A stretch of 64,000 bases of DNA from Candidatus Bathyarchaeia archaeon. GTDB taxonomy: Archaea > Thermoproteota > Bathyarchaeia > Bathyarchaeales > Bathycorpusculaceae. Below are positions 4,362 to 32,106 of this stretch, one piece after another (within the stretch, counting starts at the first letter, position 1; every line of letters starts with the position of its first letter). The notes beneath the pieces are model-generated. The model did no database searches, was not told where the DNA came from, and saw only the letters and a list, made by a program, of their open reading frames with translations. Location: positions 1-64,000 of the forward strand of contig JAVZNC010000002.1 in NCBI GenBank assembly GCA_038882955.1, in the 5' to 3' direction. A program made the position numbers and the translations under genes.

Positions 4362-4436
4362 AGAATAGAAAAAGGGGGAATGTGCGGGAGAAATCGACAA
4401 CTTCTAATAGATTTGGCCGGACTATACTACCGGAGC
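4362..4436 (-). repeat. Direct repeat copy A: tRNA-Glu 5' fragment plus ~50-nt conserved flank (att-like)
   Basis: About 64/75 identity by manual alignment with 32033-32106. Confidence 0.85.
4413..4436 (-). pseudogene. tRNA-Glu-like 5' fragment (positions 1-21, GCTCCGGTAGTATAGTCCGGCCAA), no downstream tRNA body
   Basis: Acceptor 5' strand GCTCCGG, T8A9, D-stem strand and D-loop with G18G19 typical of archaeal tRNA-Glu; anticodon and T arms absent. Confidence 0.75.
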
Positions 4437-4452
4437 CCTGAACTATACTAGT

Positions 4453-4605
4453 CTATTTTCTTTTTCGATATATGGCCACGCCATCCTTCTCGCTATACCT
4501 TACATATTCAAAGCCAGCTTCTATTAATTTGCTTTCTTCTTCCAAGTTTCTGAAAGTGTGGAGTCGAATCTGTGGTAGTTGTGAAGTTTTCTTGCAATCT
4601 GGCAT
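4453..4605 (-). pseudogene. Tyrosine integrase remnant (internally deleted C-terminal fragment)
   Basis: Manual translation MPDCKKTSQLPQIRLHTFRNLEEESKLIEAGFEYVRYSEKDGVAIYRKRK*. The HxxR box is fused directly to a LIEAGFEYV...RKRK tail; the segment with the second His and catalytic Tyr is missing; IARKLHN lies in another frame just upstream. Confidence 0.7.
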
Positions 4606-4643
4606 TTAAAACCTCGCCTTACAATGATAAAATCCTTAAAATA

Positions 4644-4671
4644 TCTTCTCTTAATCATTGTTAACAGAAAA
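4644..4671 (+). other. Xer/dif-like recombination site 3 (TCTTCTCTTAA-TCATTG-TTAACAGAAAA)
   Basis: 11-6-11 imperfect palindrome (9/11), 22 bp from the stop codon of the terminal island gene. Confidence 0.6.
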
Positions 4672-4693
4672 ATCACTGTTGAACGGGGGCATG

Positions 4694-5599
4694 TCATTTA
4701 AATATTTTGAACAATGGGTGTTCTTTCTCTAAAGGTCTTACTTTTGATTCTTGTGCCAACGTGTATGCAACATAAGCGTCTGCTAGTGCACAGTAAAAGT
4801 AAGCGTTTTTCGCGTGTTCAATCGGTCCGTATAAGATGAAGTTGGCTCCGGCAAATATTGGAAAAACATTGGCTACGGTGCATGCAAGTAGATATTCGGT
4901 TTTTTCGAGTTTACGTCTGTCATTCCATCTGGCAACCGCGTTATGCGTTCCAGCTCCACTAGGCAGTCCGTATCTTTCTTTAATTAAGTAAATGGCTTTG
5001 CTTACGGGGCCTGGATCTGGTAAATCGAGAACCGCGGTGTCCACTAGCATGTTTTCTATGCCGGCCTTTTGGGCTACGCCTATAAGTTCATCCATTACTT
5101 GTAATCTTCCAGAAACTGTGGGATTTTTGGTATTAAGCGCTAGAAGTATTGCAGATTTAATTTTAGCCTCTTTGATTGCCGAGATTTCTTCCTCTTTAAT
5201 GTGGGGCGTTATAGAGTTATAAACCGTTCTTTCAGACAAGCCAGTTTCTTTAACGTATTTTAGCCCAGCGATTCGCACTTCGGCTGTCGCGCCGTCTATT
5301 GTAAATGGTCCTTTTATTGTATTCGCCACGAAATCTAAGAATTTTTCGAAGGCTTCAGGCCAAGAGCAGCAAACGTCAACTATTCTCGGGTTTCCTGTTT
5401 TTTTTGAGACTTCCTCTTCCTCTTTTAGCAGTTCTTCAGCTTTATCCTTATCAAACTCGCCTTTTCTCTCGTCCTTAACTATTTTGTGTTTATGGTAGAA
5501 TATGCTTCCAACCATAACTGTGGGAAGCTGGCCTGGTTGCCCTCCAACTTTTACACCAGATATGTTAAAAATTTTCTGTTCCTTTTCAAATCTGAACAT
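4694..5599 (-). CDS. MtrH-like methyl-corrinoid:tetrahydropterin methyltransferase (MtoA/MtgA-type MT2)
   Basis: N-terminus MFRFEKEQKIFNISGVKVGGQPGQLPTV.VGSIFY and C-terminal HPL motif typical of the MtrH family; no other mtr genes nearby. Confidence 0.85.
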   Translation of the reverse strand: MFRFEKEQKIFNISGVKVGGQPGQLPTVMVGSIFYHKHKIVKDERKGEFDKDKAEELLKEEEEVSKKTGNPRIVDVCCSWPEAFEKFLDFVANTIKGPFTIDGATAEVRIAGLKYVKETGLSERTVYNSITPHIKEEEISAIKEAKIKSAILLALNTKNPTVSGRLQVMDELIGVAQKAGIENMLVDTAVLDLPDPGPVSKAIYLIKERYGLPSGAGTHNAVARWNDRRKLEKTEYLLACTVANVFPIFAGANFILYGPIEHAKNAYFYCALADAYVAYTLAQESKVRPLEKEHPLFKIFK

Positions 5600-5605
5600 T
5601 CTTAA

Positions 5606-7495
5606 TCACCCGTTTAGAAGGCGACTTACTGATGGAAATCTATTTAAATTTTTATGCGGGATTAGCGTTGCTTCTGCAAATTCTTTATTGAAGTTCGGAT
5701 CTGCAGCCAATTCTACATAACGCACCTTCTCCGATATTGCATTAGCTTTTTCTCTGGCATCGATTGAGATTAGAGCCATTTTTGCGCCTACGATTGCTGT
5801 GTTACCAACAAACTCAATTTTATCCACCGGAATGTCTGGTATTAACCCTATAGCTATCGCGTTTTCAGTATCTATATAATTTCCAAAAGCTCCTGCAACG
5901 AAAACCCTATCAATATCTTTCTCTTTCAATTTTTTCTTCTTCATCAGTATTGAACAACCAGCGTATATAGCTGCTTTTGCAAGTTGTATTTCACGTATGT
6001 CCTTTTGTGTCACTGTAATTTCTTTTGCAGTTTTGGCTTCATTCGCCCAAGCAACAACGAATTCCATTTCGCCGTCCTTCTTCCGCAATCTTTCAGTTTT
6101 TATGTTGGGATTAATTTTTCCTCCAGAGTCTATTATTTTACGCTTAAACATTTCTGCCACCAAGTCGATCATAGCTGAACCGCATAATCCAATAGGTTTT
6201 TCATCCCCTATTGTTGTGTATTCAACATCAAAATTTTGATTTATTTGAACTCTCTCTATAGCACCTTTCACAGCCTTTACTCCATGCTTAATGTGAAAGC
6301 CTTCAAATGCTGGGCCGGAAGCGCACGAGCATGAAAGCATATCACGACAGTTACCTACCAATACTTCTGTATTCGTTCCTACATCGATCAGCATGGAAAT
6401 CTCTTCCGAATCACATATTCCGCACGCTAAAGCATCTGCAACGGCATCAGCTCCGACGAATCCAGCTATAACTGGAAGGAGTGTTACGATTCCTGATGGA
6501 TTTATCCTCATTTTTAATTCACTAGCCTTAACGTTTACTTGTTTTTTTACCGCAGGCGTAAAAGGTGACAATGCAACATGTTTTGGCTGAATCCCAAGGA
6601 ACAGGTGGTGCATGGCAGTGTTACCCACAACCACAACTTCATATATCTTATTTGGATCGCGGTTTCTCCTTTTACACACGTCGCCTATTATTCCATTTAT
6701 GGAATCTACAACAACTTTTTGAAGAGATCTCAAATTTTCGGGACGAGTCGCCGCAAAAGTTATTCTACTTATTATATCCTCGCCATAGGCAAGTTGAGGA
6801 TTTTCAAGTGATTCTATGTCAAGGGTTTTGCCGTTCATCAAATCTACCAAATAACACACGATTTTTGAAGTCCCTATATCCACGGCTAAGCCGAGCATTT
6901 CGTTGGATGTATCTCCTGGTTCTATAGAGATCATTTTGCACATATTCCAGATGGTTGCTGTCACGTTGAAGTTTGACTGACGAAGGGTTGTAGGTAACTC
7001 CCTGAGAATTTTATAGTCTATTTCTATGCTATTAGACTTGTAAATGCGTGGCAATGAGTCAACCACTCTTTCGTAATCTGGTCGTATGTCTGATAGCGTA
7101 GGTTCAGGCATTATGACGTGAATTTTTCTTACGGCAGGTTTTGGCGGCAAGGGTTTCTCAATTCCAACAACTTGAATTCTTCTGGTTTTCAGATGACTCT
7201 CAACTGGAAGCATGACGGTTGTATCTCTCAAAACTCTGGCTTGGCACGCCAACCTATAGCCTTGGCGAATTTCAGAAGCAGATAAATGCTTCTTTTCAGA
7301 CTCTGTCAGTTCACTTAAATCCGCGGGTTCTTTAACAACCACCCTACATTTTCCACATAACCCGGCTCCACCACATTCAGATCTAATGCGGATGCCGGCA
7401 TCTCTAGCTGCTGTGAAAATCGTGTTTCCCGCTTGTACTTCAATTTTCTTTGAAATTGGTTCAAACATGACTTTCACATTTTTGTTTAAAGCCAT
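5606..7495 (-). CDS. Reductive activator of corrinoid proteins (RACo/RamA-like; 2Fe-2S ferredoxin + ASKHA ATPase)
   Basis: CGGAGLCGKC...RLAC 2Fe-2S motif; DIGTS, GFVGAD, DVGTNTE, GPAFEG, AGAFG motifs; start refined to ATG 7495. Confidence 0.9.
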   Translation of the reverse strand: MALNKNVKVMFEPISKKIEVQAGNTIFTAARDAGIRIRSECGGAGLCGKCRVVVKEPADLSELTESEKKHLSASEIRQGYRLACQARVLRDTTVMLPVESHLKTRRIQVVGIEKPLPPKPAVRKIHVIMPEPTLSDIRPDYERVVDSLPRIYKSNSIEIDYKILRELPTTLRQSNFNVTATIWNMCKMISIEPGDTSNEMLGLAVDIGTSKIVCYLVDLMNGKTLDIESLENPQLAYGEDIISRITFAATRPENLRSLQKVVVDSINGIIGDVCKRRNRDPNKIYEVVVVGNTAMHHLFLGIQPKHVALSPFTPAVKKQVNVKASELKMRINPSGIVTLLPVIAGFVGADAVADALACGICDSEEISMLIDVGTNTEVLVGNCRDMLSCSCASGPAFEGFHIKHGVKAVKGAIERVQINQNFDVEYTTIGDEKPIGLCGSAMIDLVAEMFKRKIIDSGGKINPNIKTERLRKKDGEMEFVVAWANEAKTAKEITVTQKDIREIQLAKAAIYAGCSILMKKKKLKEKDIDRVFVAGAFGNYIDTENAIAIGLIPDIPVDKIEFVGNTAIVGAKMALISIDAREKANAISEKVRYVELAADPNFNKEFAEATLIPHKNLNRFPSVSRLLNG

Positions 7496-7721
7496 ATTTT
7501 GTCGCCTATCTAAAAGGTGGCTAGGTTTCAACGCTTTTATTATTTTCCTTATTTCGTTCATATTTTCTTTTTAATTCAGCAACTTGTATGAAATGGACAA
7601 CTTTCTTCCCCTTTATACGCTACACTTCATCCGCGTTCATGGATGTTGATGTAAACTTTTAAAAATAAAGGATCTAACCATATATACTTTCCAATCATTG
7701 ATTTACAGGTGGTGTCAAAAC

Positions 7722-8768
7722 TTGGATGAAAAACGCGTGAAAGCTGAGGATTTATTCAATTTTTGTGTAAGCGTTCTTAAACGTGTTGGCGTGAAGGATG
7801 ACGACGCGAAAATAATTGCGGATAATCTAATTTTAGCTAATTTGAGGGGTGTGGATTCACATGGCATTGCAAGGCTACCAACTTATGTTGAAAGGGTCGT
7901 AAGAGGGCATATCAACCCGCAAGGTTCAATAGAGATTGTGAAGGAGCATGGTGCAACGGTGCTTATAGATGCGCATAATAATTTTGGCCAAGTTGCTGCA
8001 ATGCATGCAACCAACCTAGCAGCTCAAAAAGCTAGAAAGTTTGGGGTGTCATCCATTGGAGTTAGAAACGCCAACCATTTTGGCATGGCCGCGTATTATG
8101 CGCTTAAGCTTACTGACCAGAAACTGATAGGCATAGTTTTATCAAATAGTCCACCAGCCATCCCCCCATGGGGAGGAAAAACGCCCATGTTCGGCACCAA
8201 TCCAATCTGCATAGGTTTTCCAATGAGCAAAGGTGATTCCATTATTTTAGATATGGCTATAAGTGCCGCTGCGCGCGGAAAAATACGGCTGGCAGCATTA
8301 AAGGGTGAAAAAATACCTGAAGGCTGGGCCTTTGATGACGAAGGAAATCCAACAACCGATCCGGCGGCTGCTCTCAAGGGGTCGCTTGCCCCGATAGGTG
8401 GACCTAAGGGTTATGGATTGGCTCTTGTGTTGGATTTGCTTTGTGGATTGGTTACTGGTTCATGTTATCTTCGGAATGTTAAAGCGCTTGATGATTTCAG
8501 CGGACGCTCTGGAACTGGCTTCTTTATTGAAGCTATTGACATCGAGTCATTTATTCCCTATAAAGAGTATGAGGAAAAAATTGCTAGCTACGCAAAAGAG
8601 GTTAAAGATTGCCCTAAAAGAGATGGGGTAAATGAAATATTTTTGCCAGGGGAAATTGAGAAAAGGGAGTTGGAGCGCAGAGTTAAACTTGGTATACCGC
8701 TAGATCAAGAAGTTGTATCAGCGTTAAAAAAATTGGCTGAGAGATTTGGCGTAAAGCCTCCAGTTTAA
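7722..8768 (+). CDS. Ldh_2 family 2-hydroxyacid dehydrogenase (ComC/AllD/malate type 2)
   Basis: RGVDSHG, NHFG, GTNP, DMA, GGPKGYGL, PGE motifs; TTG start after a GGTGG RBS. Confidence 0.85.
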   Translation: MDEKRVKAEDLFNFCVSVLKRVGVKDDDAKIIADNLILANLRGVDSHGIARLPTYVERVVRGHINPQGSIEIVKEHGATVLIDAHNNFGQVAAMHATNLAAQKARKFGVSSIGVRNANHFGMAAYYALKLTDQKLIGIVLSNSPPAIPPWGGKTPMFGTNPICIGFPMSKGDSIILDMAISAAARGKIRLAALKGEKIPEGWAFDDEGNPTTDPAAALKGSLAPIGGPKGYGLALVLDLLCGLVTGSCYLRNVKALDDFSGRSGTGFFIEAIDIESFIPYKEYEEKIASYAKEVKDCPKRDGVNEIFLPGEIEKRELERRVKLGIPLDQEVVSALKKLAERFGVKPPV

Positions 8769-8775
8769 ATGGTTC

Positions 8776-10599
8776 TTAAATTCCAAGCTCTTTCAATTTT
8801 TCCTCGGATGGTTTGCCTTCTCTTGTCCATCCACGAATCTCGTAATACTCTCTTAGCATAAGATCCATGTCCGGAACATGCCGCGCGGTGCCTCCATCTT
8901 GGGGTTCCAATAGCCTCTTTGGAAGGGCGTCATCAAGCGATGATACTCCCCATCTGCAGTTGAGAACCCTTTTTAGGTTAAAGCTTCGTTCTCCTGCCAT
9001 CATAAGACCGTTTACGCTCACTTTCTTGCCGGTTACGAGTTCAAAGAACGTTGAAATTTGTGTTAGGCTAAGACCAGCTGATGATGTGTATTTGCATATA
9101 ATTAATAAATCATATAACTCCATCATGTCTTGCATTTTTTTGACGGTTATGGCTTTGCCTTTTGATTCAAATCTGTCGCCTTGTACCGTTATGCCGATTT
9201 CTGGCGCAAGCCTTCCTCTATCTGGATTATGAGGCCAAGCTAGGTGGCATCCGCCTCTGTTCATTGTTGCATAACTTATAGCATGACCGAAAAACGCTCT
9301 TGGATTATGCGCAGCAACCTCAAGGCCCTTAACGTGAACTGCGAATTCCTCGCTTCCGCGGTTTAATTTTTTTGAGGCTACTTTCACCCCATTAGCTAGT
9401 AAATCGCCTATGCTTTGCCTTTTTGCTATAAGCTCCACCAACTTTACCAAATTTTCGGATGGCCCCCATGTGAGCTCAAGTCCTCCAGTGTCGTCCTTTG
9501 TTAGTATTCCCTTTTCGAAGGCTTCTATGGCAAATGCGAGAACCGCGCCTACTGATATTGTGTCCATTCCCAATCTGTTGCATAAATCGTTTAGTTTTGC
9601 AACAAGTGAAAGGTCATCATTAAGTAGGTTTGACCCTAACATGCATAACGTTTCGAATTCTGGACTGTCTGCTCTCAAACTTGCGTGATTCCCTTCTTTT
9701 ATGTGAATTGTCCGCTTACAGCCAATAACACAATTACAGCACGGGGTTACTTCGTCCAAAATCGTCTGGGATATCTTTACGCCACTGATTTTTTCCACTT
9801 TTCCCTCTTCCCAAACGCCGTCTCTATGGTTTCTTATGGGTATATTTCCCATGTGATAATAGGATTCCATGCCTCCACCAGTGCCATACTTGCGAAGACC
9901 TTGAGACGCAGGGCTTTTAGCTAACTGCATCTGCACTCCCTTTGCGAAATCTAATAACTTGCTTTCATTCACAACGGGAATTTTCCCTGTGCCCTTAACA
10001 GCTATGGCTTTTAAGTTCTTTGATCCCATAACTGCGCCCATTCCAGATCTTCCAGCCTTTCCAACGCCAAAAATTATGGACGCGTAGTAAACGCACTTTT
10101 CGCCGGCTGGTCCTATCGCTCCTATTTGGACAGCATTGTCTTTAAGCTTGCTTTTTATCACATCGTATGTTTCGTAAACATCTTTTCCCCACAAATTTTT
10201 TGCGTCGAAAAATGTGACAGAATCATCGTTTATAAATAGGTAAGTTGGACGTTTCGCCTTTCCACTGAATATAATTAAGTCAAAACCTGCCTTCTTAAGT
10301 TGCTGACCAAACAATCCTCCCGCATGAGATTCGCCCCAAATTCCAAGCGGAGATCTTGCGCAGACGCATAACCTTCCAGAAGATGGCGTAGCCGTGCCAG
10401 TAAGAGGCCCCGTAGAAAATATTAGCAATGCTTCGGGGCTTAAGGGGTCAACATCGGTGGGCATTTCGTCATAAATTATTTTTGCAGCTAAACCTGAGCC
10501 GCCTATGTACTTTTCTCGCAGATCTTGAGATAGATTTTCAGTTTTAACTTCCTCGTTCGTGAGGTTTACCCGCAAAATTTTACCCGCATACCCAGTCAT
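8776..10599 (-). CDS. aor: W/Mo-pterin aldehyde:ferredoxin oxidoreductase family
   Basis: GYAGKILRVNL, GRSGMGAVMGSKNLKAI, CxxCxxxC, EFET, DTIS motifs. Confidence 0.9.
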   Translation of the reverse strand: MTGYAGKILRVNLTNEEVKTENLSQDLREKYIGGSGLAAKIIYDEMPTDVDPLSPEALLIFSTGPLTGTATPSSGRLCVCARSPLGIWGESHAGGLFGQQLKKAGFDLIIFSGKAKRPTYLFINDDSVTFFDAKNLWGKDVYETYDVIKSKLKDNAVQIGAIGPAGEKCVYYASIIFGVGKAGRSGMGAVMGSKNLKAIAVKGTGKIPVVNESKLLDFAKGVQMQLAKSPASQGLRKYGTGGGMESYYHMGNIPIRNHRDGVWEEGKVEKISGVKISQTILDEVTPCCNCVIGCKRTIHIKEGNHASLRADSPEFETLCMLGSNLLNDDLSLVAKLNDLCNRLGMDTISVGAVLAFAIEAFEKGILTKDDTGGLELTWGPSENLVKLVELIAKRQSIGDLLANGVKVASKKLNRGSEEFAVHVKGLEVAAHNPRAFFGHAISYATMNRGGCHLAWPHNPDRGRLAPEIGITVQGDRFESKGKAITVKKMQDMMELYDLLIICKYTSSAGLSLTQISTFFELVTGKKVSVNGLMMAGERSFNLKRVLNCRWGVSSLDDALPKRLLEPQDGGTARHVPDMDLMLREYYEIRGWTREGKPSEEKLKELGI

Positions 10600-10658
10600 T
10601 TTTGAACCCTTCGAATCAATTTTGAAGCGTTAAATCTATGTCGAAACAGTAAGATCTG

Positions 10659-11027
10659 CTATTTTTTGGCTCTTTGTCTTATGCTTTTCTCGTCTCCAGG
10701 AGGTGTGTAAACCCACAAAAATTGAAGTTCTTCTTCTCCAGAATTTTCTATGGTGTGTATTTCGTTAGGCGGCAAGTAAACTAGATCGCCGGCCTCGAGG
10801 ATTTGCACTTCTTTCGCGCTTGAAACTTTAGCCTTTCCCTTTAGAATGAAGATTGTTTCTTCGCCCGTATGAGCATGCGGAGCACCTTTCTCGCCTGTTG
10901 GATAAACTGTGAACCCTAAAGCTAGATGTTTTGAGCCTAAAACAGGATCCATCAGTATTTTGGTTACCTTTCTGGATGGTGGAGGCGCAGGAAATGTGGG
11001 GGCATTCTCTTTTCTAACTATTATCAC
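10659..11027 (-). CDS. Cupin_2 domain protein
   Basis: HAHTGEE...G and LPPNEIH metal-binding cupin motifs. Confidence 0.85.
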   Translation of the reverse strand: MIIVRKENAPTFPAPPPSRKVTKILMDPVLGSKHLALGFTVYPTGEKGAPHAHTGEETIFILKGKAKVSSAKEVQILEAGDLVYLPPNEIHTIENSGEEELQFLWVYTPPGDEKSIRQRAKK

Positions 11028-11851: not shown

Positions 11852-11864
11852 TTTATCTTCGCCT

Positions 11865-12794
11865 TTACTTTGGTATGGCTAAACCTTTTGCTCCTTTTTT
11901 GGATTGAACAGCTTCGGGATAATACTTTTTGACTATCCTATCCACTAAGACGGCTTGGATGGCCATTCTTACGCCTTCATCTTTCGTTGTCGGTACACCG
12001 TGACTTACCAGCGCCGAGTTTCCAGTTTTCAAGTGTATGGGTGCACCTACTTTTACCATTTCTGGCGCTTCATAGGTCCTGATCATTCCACCGGTGGATG
12101 CAGGATTGTCCACGTGTATGTCGATTGGCACCTTAACACTCTGCCGTAGGGCAGCAATCATGGGCAAAGTCAAGTCCCTTACAGGATTTATAGAATCAGC
12201 ACCTAATGATTCCAGCACCTTGAATGACACTGGATTTCCGTGACCGCAGTGGGCAGACAACTTAAAGCTGACATCCTTTGGGATTTCCCCATCCTTCCTC
12301 ATTTCGTTTAGCAACCACAGGAAACCTTCGTCGTAGACCAGTATTCCTCTGCAGCCAAGTTCCACAGCTCTTTTAACATCCTCAACAGCCCTGACAACCT
12401 GTTCCATTCCCCTAAGCCGATAGCCAATTCTACCCGCTTCAGCCGTGCCTGTTGCCCTTTGAGGACTTAAGTCATATGCCGCTCTTGGACCCACTGACAA
12501 GTTGATCTCAACTTTATAATCCTTTGCAAGTTGTATGTACTCTTTTAATTCTTCGTCTGTATGACGCATGATCCCCCGTGTTTCGTCAATCCTGTTAATG
12601 GTCACACCGTATTTCTCAGCGGTTTCAAGAACAGCCCTCATTGTCTCCGCAGAGTTGACAGTAGGAACCTCCAGTCTGTACTGCGCGCCATCAGGAAATC
12701 TTAACTTTGATTCTGGCAATTCGTAAAGGTCGTGATCTGGAAAACCCTTTTTCCTCAAATATGCACGTGTTTCTTTTCCAACTAACATAGGCAT
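11865..12794 (-). CDS. Uncharacterised TIM-barrel protein (U32-peptidase-like family)
   Basis: RFPDGAQYRLEVP, GPRAAYD, GIL.YDEG, GADSINP, PIDIH motifs; no clear function. Confidence 0.55.
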   Translation of the reverse strand: MPMLVGKETRAYLRKKGFPDHDLYELPESKLRFPDGAQYRLEVPTVNSAETMRAVLETAEKYGVTINRIDETRGIMRHTDEELKEYIQLAKDYKVEINLSVGPRAAYDLSPQRATGTAEAGRIGYRLRGMEQVVRAVEDVKRAVELGCRGILVYDEGFLWLLNEMRKDGEIPKDVSFKLSAHCGHGNPVSFKVLESLGADSINPVRDLTLPMIAALRQSVKVPIDIHVDNPASTGGMIRTYEAPEMVKVGAPIHLKTGNSALVSHGVPTTKDEGVRMAIQAVLVDRIVKKYYPEAVQSKKGAKGLAIPK

Positions 12795-12932
12795 ACACTT
12801 TTAAGTAGCGACAAACAGTACAAATATTTAAAGTTTCGCTGACCATAGGCGCATGTTGCTCATTGCCTTTTAAAATTTATGCTTCAAAAGTTGCGTGCTG
12901 CACTTTCTTCCAAAATTCAGGTTTATGCTTGA

Positions 12933-14222: not shown

Positions 14223-14269
14223 TTTCTATTTTATACCTCCAAGGCAAAAACTTCCACTATCGATTGCTC

Positions 14270-16234: not shown

Positions 16235-16359
16235 CGATCTTCACCTTGTGGGAATCTTGTTTTTAGAGATATATTTCGAGTGCTAATAAAAGTTGTTGAC
16301 ATAAGGTTTAAATCCAAACGTGATTCTCCATAGTTCGAGACGTTGTGGATGTGCATTTT

Positions 16360-20117: not shown

Positions 20118-20130
20118 ATAAGTTTTATAT
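20118..20130 (+). promoter_or_regulatory. BRE/TATA promoter ATAAGTTTTATAT (rhodanese gene)
   Basis: Identical 13-mer at 21578-21590; 40 bp upstream of the ATG. Confidence 0.6.
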
Positions 20131-20170
20131 GCATTATGCTATGAAAAATTGCGAAATTGAGGAGATTGCG

Positions 20171-21460: not shown

Positions 21461-21577
21461 AACGCCACTTTAGCGCTGTCAAAATTCACATTCTCTTTTT
21501 ATTTTACTTCCGTTATAAGCAATTGAGGCTTCTAATTTATTCCTTGTATTCATTTTGAATCTTGCATTGGTAAGGAC

Positions 21578-21590
21578 ATAAGTTTTATAT
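21578..21590 (+). promoter_or_regulatory. BRE/TATA promoter ATAAGTTTTATAT (ABC binding-protein operon)
   Basis: Identical to 20118-20130; 49 bp upstream of the ATG. Confidence 0.6.
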
Positions 21591-21639
21591 ATGAATTTTA
21601 GAGATTAAAGTTGTACTCGAAAATGGAGGTTTCAATTCG

Positions 21640-22929: not shown

Positions 22930-22974
22930 GCCAAAACATAGCCTTCTCTTTTTATTTTTTGGTGGGATAAAATC

Positions 22975-24791: not shown

Positions 24792-25492
24792 AGACCCAAA
24801 AAAGCTTCCTTAACATAATCGTTATTCAGAAGATCTACGCCCTTCCCTTCCAGTGTTATTTTTCCAGTCTCCATTACATAGGCGCGGTCAGCACATTTTA
24901 ATGCTTGATTGACGTTTTGTTCTGCAAGTAAAATGCTGACTCCATGCTCTTTAAGTCTTCTTAAAGCTTCAAACACTTCTAAAGTGACTTTTGGCGCCAG
25001 TCCCTGTGATGGCTCATCCAAAATCAACAATTCTGGGTTTGACATTAAACCGCGTGCTATAGCAAGCATCCTCTGCTCTCCCCCGCTTAACGTGACAGTT
25101 ACTTGTTTTTCCCTATCCTTCAATACTGGAAAAAGCTGATAAACTTGTTTGATTGTTTCCTCTTTAGAGCCCTTTCCTCTAGAGCTGTAAGCGCCTAGAA
25201 TCAAGTTTTCACGAACCGTCATGCCAGCGAAAAGTTTTCTGTCTTCAGGTATAAACGCTATCCCTAAATCTACAATTTTGTACGGAGGCATGTTGTTAAT
25301 TTCTTTGCCGTTAAATCGAATAACTCCCGACGCTGGTTTTAATATTCCAGCAATTGCGCTTAAAAGACTTGTTTTTCCAGCTCCATTAGCGCCCACTAGC
25401 GTCACAAACTCGCCTTTTTCAACGTGAACAGAAACATCCCATAAAACCTGAATTTTACCGCGCAAAACATTTAACTGTTTAACTTCAAGCAC
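24788..25492 (-). CDS. livF: HAAT ABC transporter ATPase (LivF-like)
   Basis: GANGAGKT, PEDRKLF, LSGGEQRML, DEPS.GLAP; start refined to GTG 25492. Confidence 0.9.
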   Translation of the reverse strand: MLEVKQLNVLRGKIQVLWDVSVHVEKGEFVTLVGANGAGKTSLLSAIAGILKPASGVIRFNGKEINNMPPYKIVDLGIAFIPEDRKLFAGMTVRENLILGAYSSRGKGSKEETIKQVYQLFPVLKDREKQVTVTLSGGEQRMLAIARGLMSNPELLILDEPSQGLAPKVTLEVFEALRRLKEHGVSILLAEQNVNQALKCADRAYVMETGKITLEGKGVDLLNNDYVKEAFLGL

Positions 25493-26213
25493 AGCCTTCA
25501 CCCAAAAAAGCTTCAATGACCGACGGTTCCTTGGTTATTTCACAAGGCTTCCCCTCAGCTATCTTCATGCCTTGGTGAAGCGCCATAATACGATCCGTTA
25601 CCTCCATTATGGCGCGCATGTTGTGTTCAACCATAAAAATTGTGATTCCCTCGTCATCACGCAATCGTCTAATCACCTTAAGCAGCTGTACAGTTTCAGT
25701 TGGGTTTAAACCCGCCATCACTTCGTCTAATAATAGGAGTTCGGGTTTTATTGAAAGTGCTCGGGCAATTTCAAGCATTCTAAGCTGGAAAATTGTTAAG
25801 CTTGAAGCGGGCATCATGCTCTTTTCAGCTAATCCAAATTTTTCAAGTATCACATTGAGTTCACGTTTAAGGTCGGAAAACTTGCCTTTAGCACATCCAA
25901 AAAGAGCCGCCGCGTAAACATTCTCATAAACCGTCATGTTAAGGAAAGGTTTCGGTATTTGAAATGTTCTTCCGATGCCTAGCTTACAAATTTTGTGCGG
26001 CTTAAGACCAGTTATGTCTATACCTTTAAACTTTATTGTTCCAGAAGTTGGGCGAAACGCTCCAGATATCACGTTAAAAAGCGTGCTCTTTCCAGCTCCA
26101 TTAGGACCTATCAGACCAACTATTTCTCCTTCGCTTAAACTAAAATCCACGTTGTTTAGAGCAGTTAGCCCTCCGAATTTCTTTGTAACTTTTGTTCCTT
26201 CAATAAATTCCAA
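25485..26213 (-). CDS. livG: HAAT ABC transporter ATPase (LivG-like)
   Basis: FGGL.A, GPNGAGKS, RTFQ, DE..AGL, VEH. Confidence 0.9.
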   Translation of the reverse strand: MEFIEGTKVTKKFGGLTALNNVDFSLSEGEIVGLIGPNGAGKSTLFNVISGAFRPTSGTIKFKGIDITGLKPHKICKLGIGRTFQIPKPFLNMTVYENVYAAALFGCAKGKFSDLKRELNVILEKFGLAEKSMMPASSLTIFQLRMLEIARALSIKPELLLLDEVMAGLNPTETVQLLKVIRRLRDDEGITIFMVEHNMRAIMEVTDRIMALHQGMKIAEGKPCEITKEPSVIEAFLGEGCA

Positions 26214-26233
26214 GGTATTTTCCCCACAAATTG

Positions 26234-27556
26234 TTATTTGTACACGCCATACTTTTTAGTAGCGTCAATCATCGCCTTAACATTTTCAGGTTTTGCCTTA
26301 TCAATAACCGCTCCATTCATCAAAATAAATCCTCCGCCTTCGCCAGCAACATCTATAAGCGTCCTTACATATTCTTCCACATCTTTAGGAGTACCTACTT
26401 GCAACAATGCGCTCGGCACGTTACCTCCGATGCAAGCCACATCACCCAAGATTTCCTTGGCTTTGCCCATGTCAGTCTGATCAAAACCCCACAATGTCTT
26501 GCCCTTAGGCAAGTCTCTAATTATTTCTAGACGCGATCCATAGCCTCCTTCAGCCCATGGAAAAGGCACACATCCTTCATTAATTAAGCCTATGATAACT
26601 TTCTTGAGGGTGGGCCAGTAGAAAGTTTCAAACTGTTTTGTGGACATAAATCCGTCTGCACCCTTATGCAAGGGTATGAAAACTATTGGGTTTCCATTCA
26701 TCTTCGCTGCTGAAGCACCCATTTTAATCATTAAGGGCGTCATAACTTCCATTGCTTGTAAGAGCTTATCCTTATTGCGGTACATGTCAAGCATTATCCC
26801 TTTTGTTCCTCTTAGGGTATCGCCAAGCGTGTCGAATGGCGCTTTGGTTCCTCCACCCCAAAAGTTGGGAAAACCAGCAGCGGTAATTTCCTTCTCCCAC
26901 GTCGCTACGTGTCCTATCCACTTTAGGACTTCGTTTCCTGCATCCATCATTGCCTTCAAGGCAGCTTGGACGTCGGGGAAGCCGAATGGTATGAAATTGG
27001 CTGGGGTAAAGCCTCCATACATTTCCAGTACGTTAGTGAACTGTGGAAGCTTCTTGAAAGGCTCTAAAGCGCCAAATACCCTTGGAAAATAGGTTGTTAA
27101 GAAGAAGTTTGTTGGATCTTGAATCAAAAGGTCATATTCATCAGCCTTCATGTACTCGCCTTCAATGCATTGATAAGAATGTTCTGGAGAAACTCCATGT
27201 CCAGGCCAAGCATATAACTTGTAGTCAAGAATTTCGAAGAATTTTCCGGGGCCGGGACCTATCGCTCCTCCATGAGCGTCAGGCTCAAAGTCTAAAACAT
27301 ATTTTTTAAACGCGAAAGTAAGCTTTTCATAGTCATACATCATATCATAAGCAGTTAAGCCAACATAATAGGCTGGGAAAAACCCTACTATTGGATAAAC
27401 AGGCACTCGATCGGGCAATTTTTTCAACTGAATAGCGTCCTTTATCCTAGTCACTCTCTTCTTATAATCGTTTTCAGCTTTTTCGCTGGCAAAAGTTACG
27501 CCAGCAGGAGAAAGCCATCGTTTGAACAATTCCTCTCTTTTTTCATCTGCCGACAA
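26234..27556 (-). CDS. URO-D-superfamily substrate:corrinoid methyltransferase (MtoB/MtgB-like putative O-demethylase, MT1)
   Basis: PDRVP, YMK.DEYD, APFD.LGD.LRG.KG, PLHKG..GFMS, EG.Y..RLE, FD.TD, GNVP; immediately downstream of a corrinoid protein. Confidence 0.8.
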   Translation of the reverse strand: MSADEKREELFKRWLSPAGVTFASEKAENDYKKRVTRIKDAIQLKKLPDRVPVYPIVGFFPAYYVGLTAYDMMYDYEKLTFAFKKYVLDFEPDAHGGAIGPGPGKFFEILDYKLYAWPGHGVSPEHSYQCIEGEYMKADEYDLLIQDPTNFFLTTYFPRVFGALEPFKKLPQFTNVLEMYGGFTPANFIPFGFPDVQAALKAMMDAGNEVLKWIGHVATWEKEITAAGFPNFWGGGTKAPFDTLGDTLRGTKGIMLDMYRNKDKLLQAMEVMTPLMIKMGASAAKMNGNPIVFIPLHKGADGFMSTKQFETFYWPTLKKVIIGLINEGCVPFPWAEGGYGSRLEIIRDLPKGKTLWGFDQTDMGKAKEILGDVACIGGNVPSALLQVGTPKDVEEYVRTLIDVAGEGGGFILMNGAVIDKAKPENVKAMIDATKKYGVYK

Positions 27557-27559
27557 CTT

Positions 27560-28198
27560 TCACTCCACTCCTACCCACTTTTTTGCTAAAGATACCGCGT
27601 CCATTGCGTCTTTACCATAAGCATCAGCACCGACATATCGCCGTATCTCCTCGGTTATCTGGCCGCCTCCAATCATGATCTTTACTTTGTCCCTTAAACC
27701 CGCTTTTTCAATGGCTTCTACCGTCCTTTTCATAGATTCAAAGGCTAGTGTTAAGAAACCGCTTAGGCCAACAATTGTGGCGCCAGTCTCCTTTATTTTT
27801 TCAACAAACTTCTCCTCTGGAACATCCACGCCTAAGTCGTAAACTTCAAAGCCGTTAACCTCTAGCATGAAAACCACTATGTCTTTACCAATATCGTGTA
27901 TGTCGCCAGCAACTGTTCCAAAAACTATCTTGCCCAGACGTTTGATTTGTGTTTTCTTGGCTAGTTTAGGCTTTATCATAGCTGTTATTGTTTTAAGTAT
28001 CTCGCCAGCGTAGAGAAGGTCAGATATGAAGTATTCGCTATTGGCAAAACGGTTACCAACAATCTCCATTGCTCGGCGAATGTACTCCATTATCTTAAAT
28101 GGATCCTCGCCTGCCTTAAGCATGTCATTAACCATTTTAACAGCTTCTTCTTCCTTCAAGTCTGCCAAAGCATTAACGAATTCTTCTGAATTTACCAT
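27560..28198 (-). CDS. Methyltransferase corrinoid protein (MtoC/MtgC-like)
   Basis: B12 motif GDIHDIGK, LGVDV, GLSG, IGGG; start refined to ATG 28198. Confidence 0.92.
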   Translation of the reverse strand: MVNSEEFVNALADLKEEEAVKMVNDMLKAGEDPFKIMEYIRRAMEIVGNRFANSEYFISDLLYAGEILKTITAMIKPKLAKKTQIKRLGKIVFGTVAGDIHDIGKDIVVFMLEVNGFEVYDLGVDVPEEKFVEKIKETGATIVGLSGFLTLAFESMKRTVEAIEKAGLRDKVKIMIGGGQITEEIRRYVGADAYGKDAMDAVSLAKKWVGVE

Positions 28199-28390
28199 GG
28201 TCATCATCACTCGTGTTGATAATCTTTGTACGATAAAAAATTTGCTCTTAAAAGTTTTGGATCCAACATAAACCGTAATTATGCCGATCGTATATTTCTC
28301 GAAAAAGCACATGTGAAATTAAAGTATCCCTATGAAAAACTTAAAATTATCAGTTAGCATGACAAGCGAATAATGGTTGAGGGGGCACAC

Positions 28391-30259
28391 ATGAATAAAA
28401 ATCCTAATTCTTGGTCTGGCTATATGGGGCAAGTTTTAAGGGTAAATTTGACGCGCCGCAAATTCATCGTAGAACCATTGAAGAAGAATTTTGTCGAAAG
28501 ATTTGTTGGCGGTCGCGGATTCGGCATCAAGGTGCTATTCGATGAAGTGCTAAAAGGAACCGATCCGCTGAGCCCAGAAAATAAGCTGGTTTTATCAGTA
28601 GGTCCATTAACTGGCACCAAGGCGCAGTCGGCGAGCAGGTGGATTGCACAATTTAAATCTCCACTTACAGATGCGTACTGCAGAAGTGTTGGAGGAGGAT
28701 TTTTCGGGGCTGAACTCAAGTTTGCCGGGTATGACGCAATAATCGTTGAGGGTGCCTCTGAAAAACCTGTTTACCTGTGGATAAACGATGACAAGGTTGA
28801 ATTCATGGATGCTTCCAAAGTTTGGGGTATGACAACCCTAGCTGCTCGCGATTTTATCCGCGATGATACAGATGAAAAGGCTAGAATGATTATGATAGGT
28901 CCAGCAGGAGAAAGACTTGTAAAAATCTCAGCCATTGTGACGGATGACATGCGAACCGCGGCGAGGGGTGGCGGCGGCGCAGTTATGGGGTCCAAAAAAC
29001 TTAAGGCCATAGTCGTGAAAGGCTCTAAGCGACCAACGATTTATAACGATAAAGCCTTTGATAGCGCGGTGAAAGCGCAAGTAGAAGCTTACCGCAGAAA
29101 CCCGGGCTTTGAGGGGTTTAGAAGCCTAGGTACAAACGGCATAGTATACTTGTTCTATACCATGGGCAACTTTCCAACATATAACTTCAAACAGCTCCCG
29201 TTTGAAGGAGCTCAGAGGTTTACACCAGATGTTTTAGCTAGCTACGTGGTTAAACATGATGGTTGCTACGGCTGCATGATTAGGTGCTGGAAGAAATTCA
29301 AAATTACAAAGGGGCCCTACGCTGGAATCGCTTGGGATTTTCCCGAATACGAAACTCACTGGTCGTATGGCGGAGCCATTGGAAACAGCAATATAGAGGC
29401 AATATCTTATGCCAACATGCTTTCAGACCTTTATGGCTTGGACACCATATCCACTGGAGTAGCAATAGCCTTTGCCACCGAACTCTACGAGAAAGGCATC
29501 ATAGGAAAAAGTGAAACGGGAGGTCTTGAGCTTAGATGGGGCGATCCAGAAGTTTTAGTTGAGCTTGTGAAGCGCATTGCCCTAAGAATAGGCATAGGCG
29601 AACTGCTTGGAGAGGGGGTCAAAAGAGCCGCTGAAGTTATAGGGAGAGGCGCCGAAAAGTACGCCATGCACGTTAAGGGTCTTGAATTTCCCGCCTACGA
29701 TCCGCGCTCACTAAAAGCTCACGGATTAAGCTTCGCCACCTCGCCAATAGGCGCAAGTCACTGCATTGGCTGGAACAAATTTGAGATATTGGGTGTTCCA
29801 AGAAAGGTTGACCCTTTTGCTACTAAAGGCAAGGGAGAAATAACCAAGTACGTGCAAGATGAAATCGCAGCGGCTGAAACAGCGGTTTTCTGTTCTTTCC
29901 CGATCAGCAACGATATGATAACTTTAGAATTGTATAGTGAGTTATTATATTCTGCCACTGGCATTGAAAAATTCAAAGATCCAAAGTATCTGTGGCTAGT
30001 AGGAGAAAGAATCTTTAACCTTGAAAAGGCATTCATAGCCAGAGAAGGTTTTGATGTTAATTACGATTCAATGCCCGAAAGGATACTTAAAGAACCAGTG
30101 CCTAGAGAACCCTCCAAAGGGCAAATCTTCGAGCTTGATGTGCTCCTTAAAGAATACTACAAAACTAGAGGCTGGAACAAACTGGGCGTGCCCACAAAGG
30201 AGAAACTTGCCGAGCTAGGATTAGTGGAAGCAGCTAATGAGCTCTATAATTCACCATAA
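28391..30259 (+). CDS. aor: W/Mo-pterin aldehyde:ferredoxin oxidoreductase family (second copy)
   Basis: ARGGGGAVMGSKKLKAI, CYGCMIRC, PEYET, LDTIS, YDPR. Confidence 0.9.
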   Translation: MNKNPNSWSGYMGQVLRVNLTRRKFIVEPLKKNFVERFVGGRGFGIKVLFDEVLKGTDPLSPENKLVLSVGPLTGTKAQSASRWIAQFKSPLTDAYCRSVGGGFFGAELKFAGYDAIIVEGASEKPVYLWINDDKVEFMDASKVWGMTTLAARDFIRDDTDEKARMIMIGPAGERLVKISAIVTDDMRTAARGGGGAVMGSKKLKAIVVKGSKRPTIYNDKAFDSAVKAQVEAYRRNPGFEGFRSLGTNGIVYLFYTMGNFPTYNFKQLPFEGAQRFTPDVLASYVVKHDGCYGCMIRCWKKFKITKGPYAGIAWDFPEYETHWSYGGAIGNSNIEAISYANMLSDLYGLDTISTGVAIAFATELYEKGIIGKSETGGLELRWGDPEVLVELVKRIALRIGIGELLGEGVKRAAEVIGRGAEKYAMHVKGLEFPAYDPRSLKAHGLSFATSPIGASHCIGWNKFEILGVPRKVDPFATKGKGEITKYVQDEIAAAETAVFCSFPISNDMITLELYSELLYSATGIEKFKDPKYLWLVGERIFNLEKAFIAREGFDVNYDSMPERILKEPVPREPSKGQIFELDVLLKEYYKTRGWNKLGVPTKEKLAELGLVEAANELYNSP

Positions 30260-30283
30260 AAATTCACTTTCATGTGATTCAAA

Positions 30284-30544
30284 ATGAAAGTTCGCGTTAA
30301 ATTTGCAGGAGCTGCGCACAAAAGGTTCAGTTTAACAGACATCTGGCTTTTTTTACATGATTATGCTACGGTTGAAGATGCTTTTATAAAACTTAAGGAA
30401 CAAGGAGTTGACATAAAACCAGGAGATGCCACCATAACGGTTTTGGTGAATGGAAGACGCATAGAATTTATTGGCGGACTCAAAACAAAACTCAAAGATA
30501 TGGACGAAATTGTTTTGATGCCCATAATTGCTGGAGGGCTCTAA
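30284..30544 (+). CDS. MoaD/SAMP ubiquitin-like protein (ends GGL)
   Basis: Beta-grasp pattern VLVNGR...L.D.DEI.LMP.IAGG; follows aor. Confidence 0.8.
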   Translation: MKVRVKFAGAAHKRFSLTDIWLFLHDYATVEDAFIKLKEQGVDIKPGDATITVLVNGRRIEFIGGLKTKLKDMDEIVLMPIIAGGL

Positions 30545-30593
30545 ATTAAATCTGAATGTTGTTTCGCAAGAATAATATTGGGAGTTAAAGGGT

Positions 30594-31934
30594 TTATGCT
30601 TTTACTAGCGTTATTGCTTTGACGGGGCAAACCATGGCGCATAGTCCGCATCCTATGCACTTGTCAGAAACCATGATTTTGTTGTCTTTTAAGTAGAGCG
30701 CTGCGCAGATGTTGTCAACGCATGTTTTGCATAATGTGCACTTTGCTTCATCGACTTTTGCTTTGGCAGTTACGTCCACCGCTTCATCCGCGGTTTTTAG
30801 CTGTTTAATTCCAACTTTTCGTATTTCTTCTATGCTGTCGTAGCCCTGCTCCGTCATGAATCTTTTAATAAATTCAAGTTCAGACCTCAGGAAGCGGATT
30901 CCCTTGAAGAATACGGTGGCGCATTGTCCTGCGGCCTTTGCTCCAAGCATTATTATCTGGATTATGTGTTCTGCGTTCATTAGGCCTCCCATAGCCAGTA
31001 TGTCCAGCTCTGGTACGAACATGCTTATGGCAGCAACATGTTTGCGTATAATTGGTCTTAGTGGCTCGCCTCCATATCCGATAAGTGGATTTCCATCTGT
31101 GAATGGCAATGTCGTTTTCCCTTTGTTGTAGATGTCTGGTGGCGGAATAGTTACACCCATGTTGGCAGTGGTAATGAAAGATGCACCAGCCTTTTTTGCT
31201 CTTCTCGCAATTTCTACGACCCTTGGAAAACCTGTTTCTGGCGTAAGTTTGACCCCCACAGGGATGCTTACCTCTTGAGTAACTTCTTTAACTACATCCT
31301 CTATGAATTCAGGGGAGTCGCCCATAATGGCACCCATATTTGCGAATATGAATTTTCCATCTAGAAACGCATTTATGTTTCCTCTAACCGTGGCGAAGAA
31401 GGGACATGACACGTTTAACTCAATCATATCAAGACCTGCCTCTTCCGCCTTCTTTGAAGCTATTCGGAAAGATTCTGGGTCTCCCGCGGCTTCAATATTG
31501 GCGATCAGCGGAACGTCTGGAGGTTTGTTTTTCTTTAGCATGTTGATGATGGGCATTTTAAGCTCCAATGACTTTGCAAAACCCTCTATCGGAATGCCAT
31601 AGGGCGTCATAGCTCCTAACCTATGTAGGAAGCATCCTTCTCCATCCTTCATCCATCGCCTCACTGGTCTACCACCGAAATGTTTCCGTATAATTTCTCG
31701 CCATTCCTGCGACGAAACCTCCTTTTTCTTTTTCTGAACGTATTCCTCTGGAAGAGAACAAAGCGCTCCTACCGAAATATATCCTGCACCAGCCTCGGCA
31801 GATTTAAGTAATATTTTCGCTACATCCTCGTCAGGTATCGAGCTGCCCATAAAAGTTGCTATCGCACCAATGCCTATCGGGCTAGGAAGCCTTATCCCCG
31901 CAAAATCAACAGATAATCTCTCATCCCTTGTCAT
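30594..31934 (-). CDS. Dihydroorotate/dihydropyrimidine dehydrogenase (PreA-like) FMN enzyme with C-terminal 4Fe-4S dicluster
   Basis: ELNVSCP, VKLTP, GG, CxxCxxC...C and CIGCGLC..VCP. Confidence 0.8.
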   Translation of the reverse strand: MTRDERLSVDFAGIRLPSPIGIGAIATFMGSSIPDEDVAKILLKSAEAGAGYISVGALCSLPEEYVQKKKKEVSSQEWREIIRKHFGGRPVRRWMKDGEGCFLHRLGAMTPYGIPIEGFAKSLELKMPIINMLKKNKPPDVPLIANIEAAGDPESFRIASKKAEEAGLDMIELNVSCPFFATVRGNINAFLDGKFIFANMGAIMGDSPEFIEDVVKEVTQEVSIPVGVKLTPETGFPRVVEIARRAKKAGASFITTANMGVTIPPPDIYNKGKTTLPFTDGNPLIGYGGEPLRPIIRKHVAAISMFVPELDILAMGGLMNAEHIIQIIMLGAKAAGQCATVFFKGIRFLRSELEFIKRFMTEQGYDSIEEIRKVGIKQLKTADEAVDVTAKAKVDEAKCTLCKTCVDNICAALYLKDNKIMVSDKCIGCGLCAMVCPVKAITLVKA

Positions 31935-32008
31935 AGACGTCCTCCAACTTGTTGAATAAATGACTGTTCAAGGACTTATATATTAATCTTTTATTAGAGT
32001 TTTGAGAA

Positions 32009-32036
32009 TTTTTTGTTAGTTGCGGTTAAAGGAGAA
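32009..32036 (+). other. Xer/dif-like recombination site 4 (TTTTTTGTTAG-TTGCGG-TTAAAGGAGAA)
   Basis: Core GTTAG-TTGCRG-TTAA shared with site 2; abuts repeat B. Confidence 0.55.
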
Positions 32037-32106
32037 TAGAAAAAGGGGATGTTGCTGGAGAAATCGGCAATGTTTAGTAGATTTGACCGGACTATACTAC
32101 CGGAGC
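32033..32106 (-). repeat. Direct repeat copy B: tRNA-Glu 5' fragment plus conserved flank (att-like)
   Basis: About 85% identical to 4362-4436. Confidence 0.85.
32083..32106 (-). pseudogene. tRNA-Glu-like 5' fragment (GCTCCGGTAGTATAGTCCGGTCAA)
   Basis: 23/24 identical to 4413-4436; ends at tRNA position 21. Confidence 0.75.

Follow-up and report, generated by a model that had tools for sequence, protein, structure and literature searches.

Two 24-nt tRNA-Glu fragments in a Bathyarchaeia genome as probable junctions of successive integrations at the 5' end of a tRNA gene

The stretch of DNA analysed here (the window) is 64,000 nt long and is the beginning of contig C2 of a Bathyarchaeia assembly of 31 contigs (G000). 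A motif search found GCTCCGGTAGTATAGTCCGG(C/T)CAA twice on its minus strand, in what we call fragments A and B (Table 1), and the number of matches expected from 100 shuffles was 0, even with 3 mismatches tolerated. The two copies are where the preliminary description of this DNA had placed them, and each corresponds to nt 1-24 of the intact tRNA-Glu(CTC) gene on another contig (C5:258-335), fragment A being identical to it at 24 of 24 positions (C5:258-281) and fragment B at 23 of 24, the exception being nt 21 (C for T). The 24th nucleotide of the tRNA is the last base of the D-loop, which we take to be position 21 in the standard tRNA numbering. Neither ARAGORN nor Rfam predicted a tRNA within the window, and base composition shows no shift at 32 kb.

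Table 1. Features at and around the two tRNA-Glu fragments (window positions)
Feature	Position	Strand	Remarks
Left part of putative element 2, cut by the contig end	1-4275	-	No collinear match in congeners
T arm, conserved left arm of putative element 2: trailer, T-run, GTAAGCACTTAC palindrome, CCGTTAACTGCAACTAAC	4276-4412	-	
Fragment B, copy of the putative att core; probable hybrid junction of element 1 right end and element 2 left end	4413-4436	-	
16-nt spacer between integrase stop codon and core	4437-4452	-	Degenerate copy of tRNA nt 5-20
Integrase pseudogene stub, 50 codons and stop codon	4453-4605	-	
Island 1, 23 ORFs, all metabolic or transport	4694-31942	.	Pfam scans
T' arm, element side, behind fragment A: trailer GATTTCTCC...CCCCTTTTTCTATTCT, then TTTAACCGCAACTAAC	32015-32082	-	
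Fragment A, copy of the putative att core; probable left junction (attL) behind native upstream flank	32083-32106	-	24/24 to C5:258-281
Native left flank: 780-aa gene (32173-34515) and thermosome gene (34622-36289)	32173-36289	-	86-89% collinear with G003

The 27 kb between the fragments hold only metabolic genes and the integrase remnant. Island 1 includes genes for MtrH, RACo, two AFOR, a corrinoid protein and a URO-D/MtaA-like protein, together with beta-oxidation enzymes, a branched-chain amino-acid ABC transporter and ThiS, and the Pfam scans found no integrase, replication, virus or other mobile-element genes among its ORFs. It is collinear with clusters in two other genomes (G047:C2 and G015:C4) at 75-83%, the same divergence as that of core genes, and neither cluster has a tRNA-Glu or an integrase beside it. 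On the far side of fragment B, putative element 2 carries a gene for a NosD/beta-helix/Big_7 surface-type protein (4119-841) and an open gene for an NHL-repeat protein (498-1).

Each fragment is followed by a homologous stretch, as had been noted before: positions 4362-4436 align to 32033-32106 with 86.8% identity over 76 nt. Further downstream the two loci share a direct match (CCGTTAACTGCAACTAAC at ~4293-4276 and TTTAACCGCAACTAAC at ~32030-32015), which is part of a ~160-nt arm conserved in related elements; the arm of fragment B, core included, is 95.6% identical over ~160 nt to the arms in two genomes of other genera (G011 and G077), and the T' arm, read by eye from the alignments, resembles the fragment B arm minus ~85 nt from its middle. 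The dif-like site that was thought to follow each trailer found no support: an inverted-repeat search of 4230-4420 and 31935-32090 gave nothing common to both regions and only weak, different palindromes, GTTAAC-centred in one and ATATAT-centred in the other. A Xer/dif site would have a pair of inverted arms flanking a short spacer, alike in both copies, and none appeared in this search, which went by inverted repeats alone. The trailers were also considered as decayed 3' parts of the tRNA, and local alignment was no better than with shuffles (p = 0.78 and 0.39). The trailer motif is present elsewhere without a tRNA fragment, with an integrase remnant nearby in 1 of 14 such loci searched.

The gene at C5:258-335 is the sole tRNA-Glu(CTC) that ARAGORN predicted in the 31 contigs (Rfam tRNA, 62.2 bits); an intact tRNA-Glu(TTC) is present as well. 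It stands at the very beginning of C5, 16 nt behind the stop codon of a tyrosine recombinase gene of which the last 79 codons remain (C5:2-238), containing LLGH...Y, presumably the usual catalytic His and Tyr of these enzymes. The 79 codons are 100% identical to the C-terminal end of a 425-aa integrase in G011 (PF00589 match of 63.9 bits against a cut-off of 27.1). The 116 nt upstream of the intact tRNA are ~96% identical to the 116 nt upstream of fragment B, and with the core included the two loci align over 140 nt at 96.4%. The stub before fragment B consists of QIRLHTFR joined to the final 32 residues, which agree at all 32 positions with residues 394-425 in the G011 protein; it lacks residues 346-393, the segment with LLGH...Y, and everything before ~residue 328. 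The same 16-nt spacer precedes the intact tRNA in C5, G011 and G065 and a hybrid junction in G120, and variants of it precede the intact tRNA in G002 and G047.

An intact tRNA-Glu next to an integrase had been predicted to lie left of the window. The pair does exist; left of the window there is an assembly gap, because the window is the beginning of its contig, and C2 and C5, though unjoined in the assembly, are probably neighbours. Contig-end overlaps with C2:1 or C5:1 were not found at k = 21-55. Integrase residues 1-346 and a D5-like helicase are absent from the assembly, and tblastn found no close copy of the G011 helicase or integrase in it. The assembly has 11 PF00589 matches, and paralogues of this integrase end beside tRNA genes, one with a classical 3' pair at tRNA-Cys.

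A relative in the same genus (G003) lacks the island and has a full tRNA-Glu downstream of the 780-aa gene, as the preliminary description had suggested that such a relative might. There, an orthologue of that gene (81% identity) is followed by the same upstream flank as that of fragment A and then by intact tRNA-Glu(CTC), with no integrase. Collinearity with G003 extends over window positions 32127-39914; in all three congeners (G001-G003), positions 1-32082 yield short scattered matches only, none of them collinear. Before fragment A, ~25 nt of the native upstream flank are missing in G000, including an A/T-rich stretch present in G003. Behind the G003 tRNA stands TTTCTATTCT-TTTAACCG, a match to the distal part of fragment A's T' arm that a simple integration model leaves unexplained. 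On the right of tRNA-Glu(CTC), the flank differs from genus to genus.

In three other genera the 24-nt fragment with its trailer is paired with an integrase and intact tRNA at distances of 1.6 to 33 kb. The order in G011 is thermosome gene, 24-nt fragment and arm, 33.3 kb, D5_N/DUF5906 primase-helicase, 425-aa integrase and intact tRNA; this full element also carries NosD/beta-helix proteins, with ~29 kb of cellular-type cargo. The pairs in G065 and G047 are spaced by 3.6 kb and 1.6 kb. Of six genomes examined, three have both ends, two have the left junction only, near a contig end, and one (G120) has the hybrid junction, G120:C66 showing the same succession of integrase, spacer, core and arm as fragment B. 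That contig was considered as a free circular element, and it has no terminal overlap and carries chromosomal genes. Core and trailer occur together in at least 11 other genomes among the matches listed in a search of a family of 120 genomes. In G011, G065, G077 and G047 the gene immediately before the tRNA-Glu junction is that of the thermosome, which is only 82-84% identical between our genome and those other genera, whereas C5:1-257 reaches 98.4% identity with G011 and 98.0% with G065. Arms and integrase ends at 96-98% against a thermosome gene at 82-84% mark recent element mobility and gene flow among hot-spring Bathyarchaeia genera.

With three junctions, an unoccupied site in a congener, complete pairs elsewhere, and an arm and an integrase end that hardly differ from one genus to another, we consider it highly probable that both fragments are junctions of successive site-specific integrations of related elements at the 5' end of tRNA-Glu(CTC). 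Direct repeats of part of the tRNA bound the insert in C2/C5, G011, G065 and G047, a tyrosine recombinase adjoins one junction, and the site is unoccupied in the close relative G003, though with an odd downstream flank. The free element would carry, in this order, the integrase gene, its stop codon, the 16-nt spacer, a copy of tRNA nt 1-24 and the ~160-nt conserved arm, and the tyrosine integrase would recombine that copy with the chromosomal gene, the crossover probably falling 5' of nt 21. On the left this would leave native upstream flank, 24-nt fragment and element arm, fragment A being such a junction; on the right it would leave integrase, spacer and a complete tRNA, now transcribed from element DNA, with a promoter that probably lies within the 3' end of the integrase gene. 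The T-run of the arm may halt transcripts that begin at the orphaned promoter of the tRNA. If another element then inserted into the rebuilt gene, the outcome would be the hybrid junction at fragment B, with the intact gene left behind the second integrase, at C5:258-335. The earlier proposal of att cores of two related elements in tandem is in this respect supported, by the intact tRNA with its integrase, by the empty site in G003 and by the lack of a 3' half.

As regards two related elements, the att junctions stand, and the first 'element' (32082-4437) has lost its backbone, leaving a metabolic cluster and a dead integrase stub. That the first element brought the 27-kb cluster with it as cargo, its integrase decaying afterwards, seems to us about as probable as not. 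Island 1 is without mobile genes and is collinear elsewhere at core-like divergence, both of which tell against delivery by an element. A substantial possibility, albeit one that we slightly disfavour, is that only the junctions are element-derived and that a native 27-kb cluster was placed between the fragment A scar and the stub by deletion, inversion or translocation. This would fit the count of 0 mobile-element genes in 23 ORFs, the position of the collinear G047 and G015 clusters away from tRNA-Glu, the internal deletions in both the T' arm and the integrase stub, and the part of the T' arm behind the G003 tRNA, which shows extra events at the locus. It fits less well with the cluster filling the interval almost exactly (~70 nt from the T' arm end and ~90 nt from the stub), with 1-32082 having no collinear match in any of the three congeners, and with the full G011 element likewise having ~29 kb of cellular-type cargo.

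The remaining alternatives concern the fragments themselves. Fragment and trailer could be a functional small RNA made from the orphaned tRNA promoter and conserved for itself, since the trailer motif is conserved across genera even where no tRNA fragment accompanies it. We think this highly improbable: nothing in the window matches an Rfam family at gathering score, a search at looser thresholds around fragment B gave one chance-level match (IMES-5, 18 bits against a cut-off of 96.1), no fold is better than that of shuffles, ~25 nt of the upstream flank, the A/T-rich stretch among them, are gone before fragment A, and a role as recombination arm or terminator explains the conservation equally well. 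It is very unlikely that the fragments are assembly or binning artefacts, chimeric joins of community repeats, even though spacer and core are a multi-copy community repeat (in sequencing run X1 their contig has a depth of 172 against ~41 for the flanks), bin contamination is 6.09% and duplicated tRNAs stand on small contigs; against this, the same junction types recur in other genera, in genomes that are independent of this one and of which one has only 2 contigs, and the X1 contigs flanking fragment B on both sides are equal in depth (40.5 and 41-41.7). The depth of the X1 spacer-and-core contig, and its continuation into full-length integrase sequence, also speak for integration by an element. 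The sequencing-run contigs examined contain no joint of an excised or empty form, though contigs cannot show absence. In run X2 most of 4807-8000 is without a contig, which proves nothing.

Split tRNA genes are found in Nanoarchaeum equitans and Caldivirga maquilingensis, and like them the window has stand-alone tRNA 5' pieces followed by trailers. The alternative of the preliminary description, that the fragments are 5' halves of trans-spliced tRNAs whose trailers pair with the leaders of distant 3' halves, draws on the trailer and T-run at each fragment and on the part of the native upstream flank kept at fragment A, and is scarcely credible because there is no complementary 3' half and intact genes are present for both tRNA-Glu(CTC) and tRNA-Glu(TTC): a search for a T-arm followed by CCGGAGC gave nine matches, of which only the two complete tRNA-Glu combine a tRNA-like arm with the exact acceptor strand (seven are different tRNAs or no tRNA at all), the trailers match nothing longer than 18 nt in the rest of the assembly, never at E < 0.01, and have no leader complementary to them above chance, the trailers have no stable fold (z of -1.1 to +0.4), and in other genera fragment and trailer are paired with integrase and intact tRNA.

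For annotation, the two tRNA-like pieces are thus best treated as probable integration junctions, neither genes nor split tRNAs, and the left 32 kb of the window as a strain-specific insertion hotspot. The only assembled tRNA-Glu(CTC) of the host appears to rely on element DNA for its promoter, which would tie the host to the element remnant. A broader proposal, which we advance tentatively and rather doubt, is that a family of Bathyarchaeia elements, equipped with a D5-like primase-helicase and a tyrosine integrase that is not split, has the 5' end of tRNA-Glu(CTC) as its insertion site and replaces the promoter of that tRNA, has recently crossed hot-spring genera and here delivered and fixed a 27-kb methyl-corrinoid/aldehyde/fatty-acid cluster; if so, metabolic modules of Bathyarchaeia that look like core genes would spread on such elements. 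The complete left and right pairs in several genera could be substrates for biochemistry. Archaeal elements that integrate at tRNA 5' ends are rare and have been described before; the passages of PMC10848311, PMC11697101 and PMC11705971 drawn on here describe none at tRNA-Glu in Bathyarchaeia, and their supplementary tables may list such sites.

Like the classical tRNA-targeting elements (pNOB8, pT26-2), those described here have an intact tyrosine integrase by the att site and a flanking direct repeat of part of the tRNA. Classical elements usually copy the 3' end, so that the tRNA keeps its own promoter, whereas here the 5' end is copied; the paralogue at tRNA-Cys in G000 has the usual 3' core. 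Bacterial tRNA-targeting islands were reportedly surveyed by Williams in 2002. Arrays of classical elements arise by re-use of the site, according to the part of PMC6563490 used here, which also describes CalSub-E1 of Ca. Caldiarchaeum subterraneum at the 5'-distal region of a tRNA-Ser as a single case; that element differs from ours in tRNA and in host. A close parallel is offered by the pTN3-like (SSV-family, 'suicidal') integrases of Thermococcales, including TKV4, for which attB is, in the section of PMC8371274 concerned, the 5' part of a tRNA gene and the complete tRNA is rebuilt at the integrase side and hence expressed from element sequence. Here likewise the core is tRNA nt 1-24, and the whole tRNA would be restored on the integrase side. 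The hosts, however, are Bathyarchaeia, the name under which sources list homologous integrases, and while the pTN3-like att lies within the integrase ORF, which is split on integration, the core here lies 16 nt past the stop codon and G011 retains an unbroken 425-aa ORF in its integrated element, which sets it apart from the SSV-type 'suicidal' class with att inside the ORF. Few archaeal elements are on record as using tRNA 5' ends as targets, and one with a non-split integrase would join them here.

The core, nucleotides 1-24 of tRNA-Glu(CTC), was found at two sites in the window and nowhere else in it with up to 3 mismatches, with 0 expected from 100 shuffles, and the stretches running from core through trailer at the two sites align with 86.8% identity over 76 nt, so that the two tRNA-Glu 5' fragments with homologous trailers noted in the preliminary description are real. 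No tRNA was called by ARAGORN or Rfam within the window, the initial 64 kb of contig C2. Across all contigs of the assembly of the genome under study, G000 (31 contigs, 1.54 Mb, completeness 95.6%, contamination 6.09%), ARAGORN called a tRNA-Glu with anticodon TTC at C2:131137-131212 and a single one with CTC at C5:258-335, the latter with Rfam support of 62.2 bits. Fragment A is the first 24 nt of this tRNA-Glu(CTC), and fragment B differs from it at nucleotide 21 only. An intact tRNA-Glu beside an integrase had been predicted, and the one on C5 does indeed begin 16 nt past the stop codon of a tyrosine recombinase.

Features of the tRNA-Glu(CTC) sites in G000 and arrangement of the corresponding loci in the other genomes inspected
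Feature	Location	Strand	Sequence or arrangement	Evidence
Fragment B core	window 4436-4413	-	GCTCCGGTAGTATAGTCCGGCCAA	sequence match
Fragment A core	window 32106-32083	-	GCTCCGGTAGTATAGTCCGGTCAA	sequence match
Tyrosine recombinase, last 79 residues	C5:2-238		ending ...LLGHKKLENTDFYTQ...AIYRKRK, then stop codon	
16-nt spacer, integrase stop codon to tRNA/core	window 4437-4452; C5:242-257		ACTAGTATAGTTCAGG	
Locus in G011	2-contig genome		thermosome, fragment + arm, 33.3 kb, D5_N/DUF5906 primase-helicase, 425-aa integrase, spacer, intact tRNA	
Locus in G065			fragment/intact tRNA pair as in G011, 3.6 kb apart	
Locus in G047			fragment/intact tRNA pair as in G011, 1.6 kb apart	
Loci in G077 and G044	close to contig end		left junction only	
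Locus in G120			hybrid junction as at fragment B	

The 16-nt spacer is a degenerate copy of tRNA nucleotides 5-20, and G011 and G065 keep it ahead of the intact tRNA, as does G120 in its hybrid junction (right end of one element joined to left end of the next); G002 and G047 have variants. C5:142-281 and window 4552-4413 share 96.4% identity, and the integrase copy in the window is a 50-codon stub in which QIRLHTFR is joined directly to the last 32 residues, the LLGH...Y segment and everything before about residue 328 being absent.

The alternative that the fragments are 5' exons of trans-spliced split tRNAs was rejected, as searches for an orphan 3' half and for a complementary leader found neither and an intact tRNA-Glu(CTC) exists; the trailers fold no better than shuffles. 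Reading the trailer as a decayed tRNA 3' part was also rejected, and the dif-like site proposed behind each trailer was not borne out, there being no repeat common to both copies.

Searching with fragment B plus its trailer, core and trailer were found together in at least 11 of 120 other family genomes among the matches listed (163 further matches lie outside that list), and six of these (G011, G065, G047, G077, G044 and G120) were inspected. The left neighbour is a thermosome gene in G011, G065, G077 and G047, the conserved arm extends about 160 nt counted from the core, and the G011 integrase carries a zinc ribbon and PF00589. The G065 tRNA-Glu(CTC) behind the integrase is interrupted past its anticodon by an intron of about 22 nt (L060 c[3964-4063]), because of which ARAGORN labels it tRNA-Ser(cga). 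The trailer motif (GATTTCTCCCGCAC...CCCCCTTTTTCT) is also present in many family genomes at places where no tRNA-Glu fragment accompanies it (L025, L037, L039, L042, L044, L055, L057), and at G002:C12:1313-1342 (L025) it directly follows a protein gene stop codon, where synteny with G000 C1:51135 ends. Both G000 copies of the motif lie behind the tRNA fragments, that of fragment B fitting the 30-nt motif ungapped and that of fragment A having diverged.

In the integrated G011 copy the integrase ORF is whole and the core begins past its stop codon, thus, in contrast to the SSV or pTN3 type, the integrase gene stays in one piece. With an element integrated at the tRNA 5' end, the native promoter would be left with only a 24-nt stump and the T-run-bearing arm, and transcription of the complete tRNA behind the integrase would have to start in the integrase 3' end or the spacer; about 30-37 nt ahead of this tRNA there is an A/T-rich CATATATCG. 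Nucleotide 21 is C in the left junction and T in the tRNA for both G000 fragment B and G047, and an exchange 5' of nucleotide 21 would fit this difference.

A relative lacking the island was expected to carry a full tRNA-Glu immediately downstream of the 780-aa gene (32173-34515), and in the congener G003 an orthologue of that gene (81% identity) is followed downstream by the common upstream flank and an intact tRNA-Glu(CTC). Collinearity with G003, at 86-89%, covers window 32127-39914, and window 1-32082 gives no more than short scattered matches to the congeners G001, G002 and G003. Behind the intact G003 tRNA comes TTTCTATTCT-TTTAACCG, which is the distal stretch of the T' arm (the element-side arm behind fragment A); additional events must have taken place at that locus. 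This arm-like sequence gives way to the final codons of a TatD-like gene, which is whole in G000 (C1:360325-361100); the G003 tRNA has no encoded CCA (L023:7699-7730) and the orthologue contains one in-frame TGA (L012, G003:C3:127207-129525). The order in G002 is thermosome, about 5 kb with two integrase remnants, spacer and tRNA-Glu(CTC), showing that this site has been used repeatedly.

C5:1-257 is 98.4% identical to G011 and 98.0% to G065, the arm is 95.6% identical to those of G011 and G077, and the C-terminal 79 integrase residues of G000 and G011 are identical, against 82-84% identity for thermosome genes; from these comparisons the pattern is read as recent transfer. Homologous integrases carry Bathyarchaeia names in their sources, and the sequencing runs containing the window stretch are labelled hot springs metagenomes. 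In one run, X1, the contig holding spacer plus core has a depth of 172 against 40.5 and ~41-41.7 for the flanks and extends into full-length integrase sequence. The att region is thus repeated in multiple copies across the community, and this accounts for the contig breaks.

All 23 ORFs of island 1 (4694-31942), between the two fragments, match metabolic or transport families (one, 11865-12794, as a weak Peptidase_U32 below the curated cut-off only), including MtrH, RACo, a corrinoid protein, a URO-D-like protein, two AFOR, beta-oxidation enzymes and a branched-chain amino-acid ABC transporter. Three genera share this ~27-kb cluster in collinear order, G047:C2 (~163093-189425) and G015:C4 (~31422-52271) matching at 75-83%, and it occupies a different chromosomal place in each; no tRNA-Glu or integrase end was found by the clusters in those two genomes. 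Its divergence equals that of core genes, so recent transfer of the cluster is not indicated, and it may have been placed either as element cargo or by rearrangement.

Other G000 tRNA loci were also noted. The 3' end of an intact tRNA-Cys (C1:225224-225296) is repeated over 37 nt at a distance of 6.3 kb (C1:231537-231573), which looks like a classical 3'-type att pair, and the small contig C12 holds a second tRNA-Cys and an integrase. The 5' geometry of tRNA-Glu recurs at C4:117995-119444, where about 42 nt separate the end of an integrase from a downstream tRNA-Asp that has an intron and lies on the same strand; a second tRNA-Asp 5' end was not found in the assembly. The small contigs C9-C23 carry further copies of several tRNAs, namely Trp (C3/C10), Ala-TGC (C4/C9/C17), Cys (C1/C12), Thr-CGT (C2/C11) and Arg-CCT (C2/C23), and some of these contigs also hold an integrase; at 6.09% contamination they may represent mobile elements, or the bin may include a second strain. 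At C4:9317-10299 ARAGORN places a tRNA-Phe(gaa) whose 'intron' spans 888 nt; the call may be wrong, or an insertion may have broken the gene.

Several archaeal cases, and arrays at re-used sites, are cited in passages of PMC6563490. In passages of PMC8371274, pTN3-like integrases are said to be the only archaeal ones that use the tRNA 5' half, the tRNA being expressed from the integrase promoter. The arrangement at tRNA-Glu(CTC) belongs to a known kind of tRNA integration and differs from the pTN3-like case in that the integrase is unsplit and the host belongs to the Bathyarchaeia.
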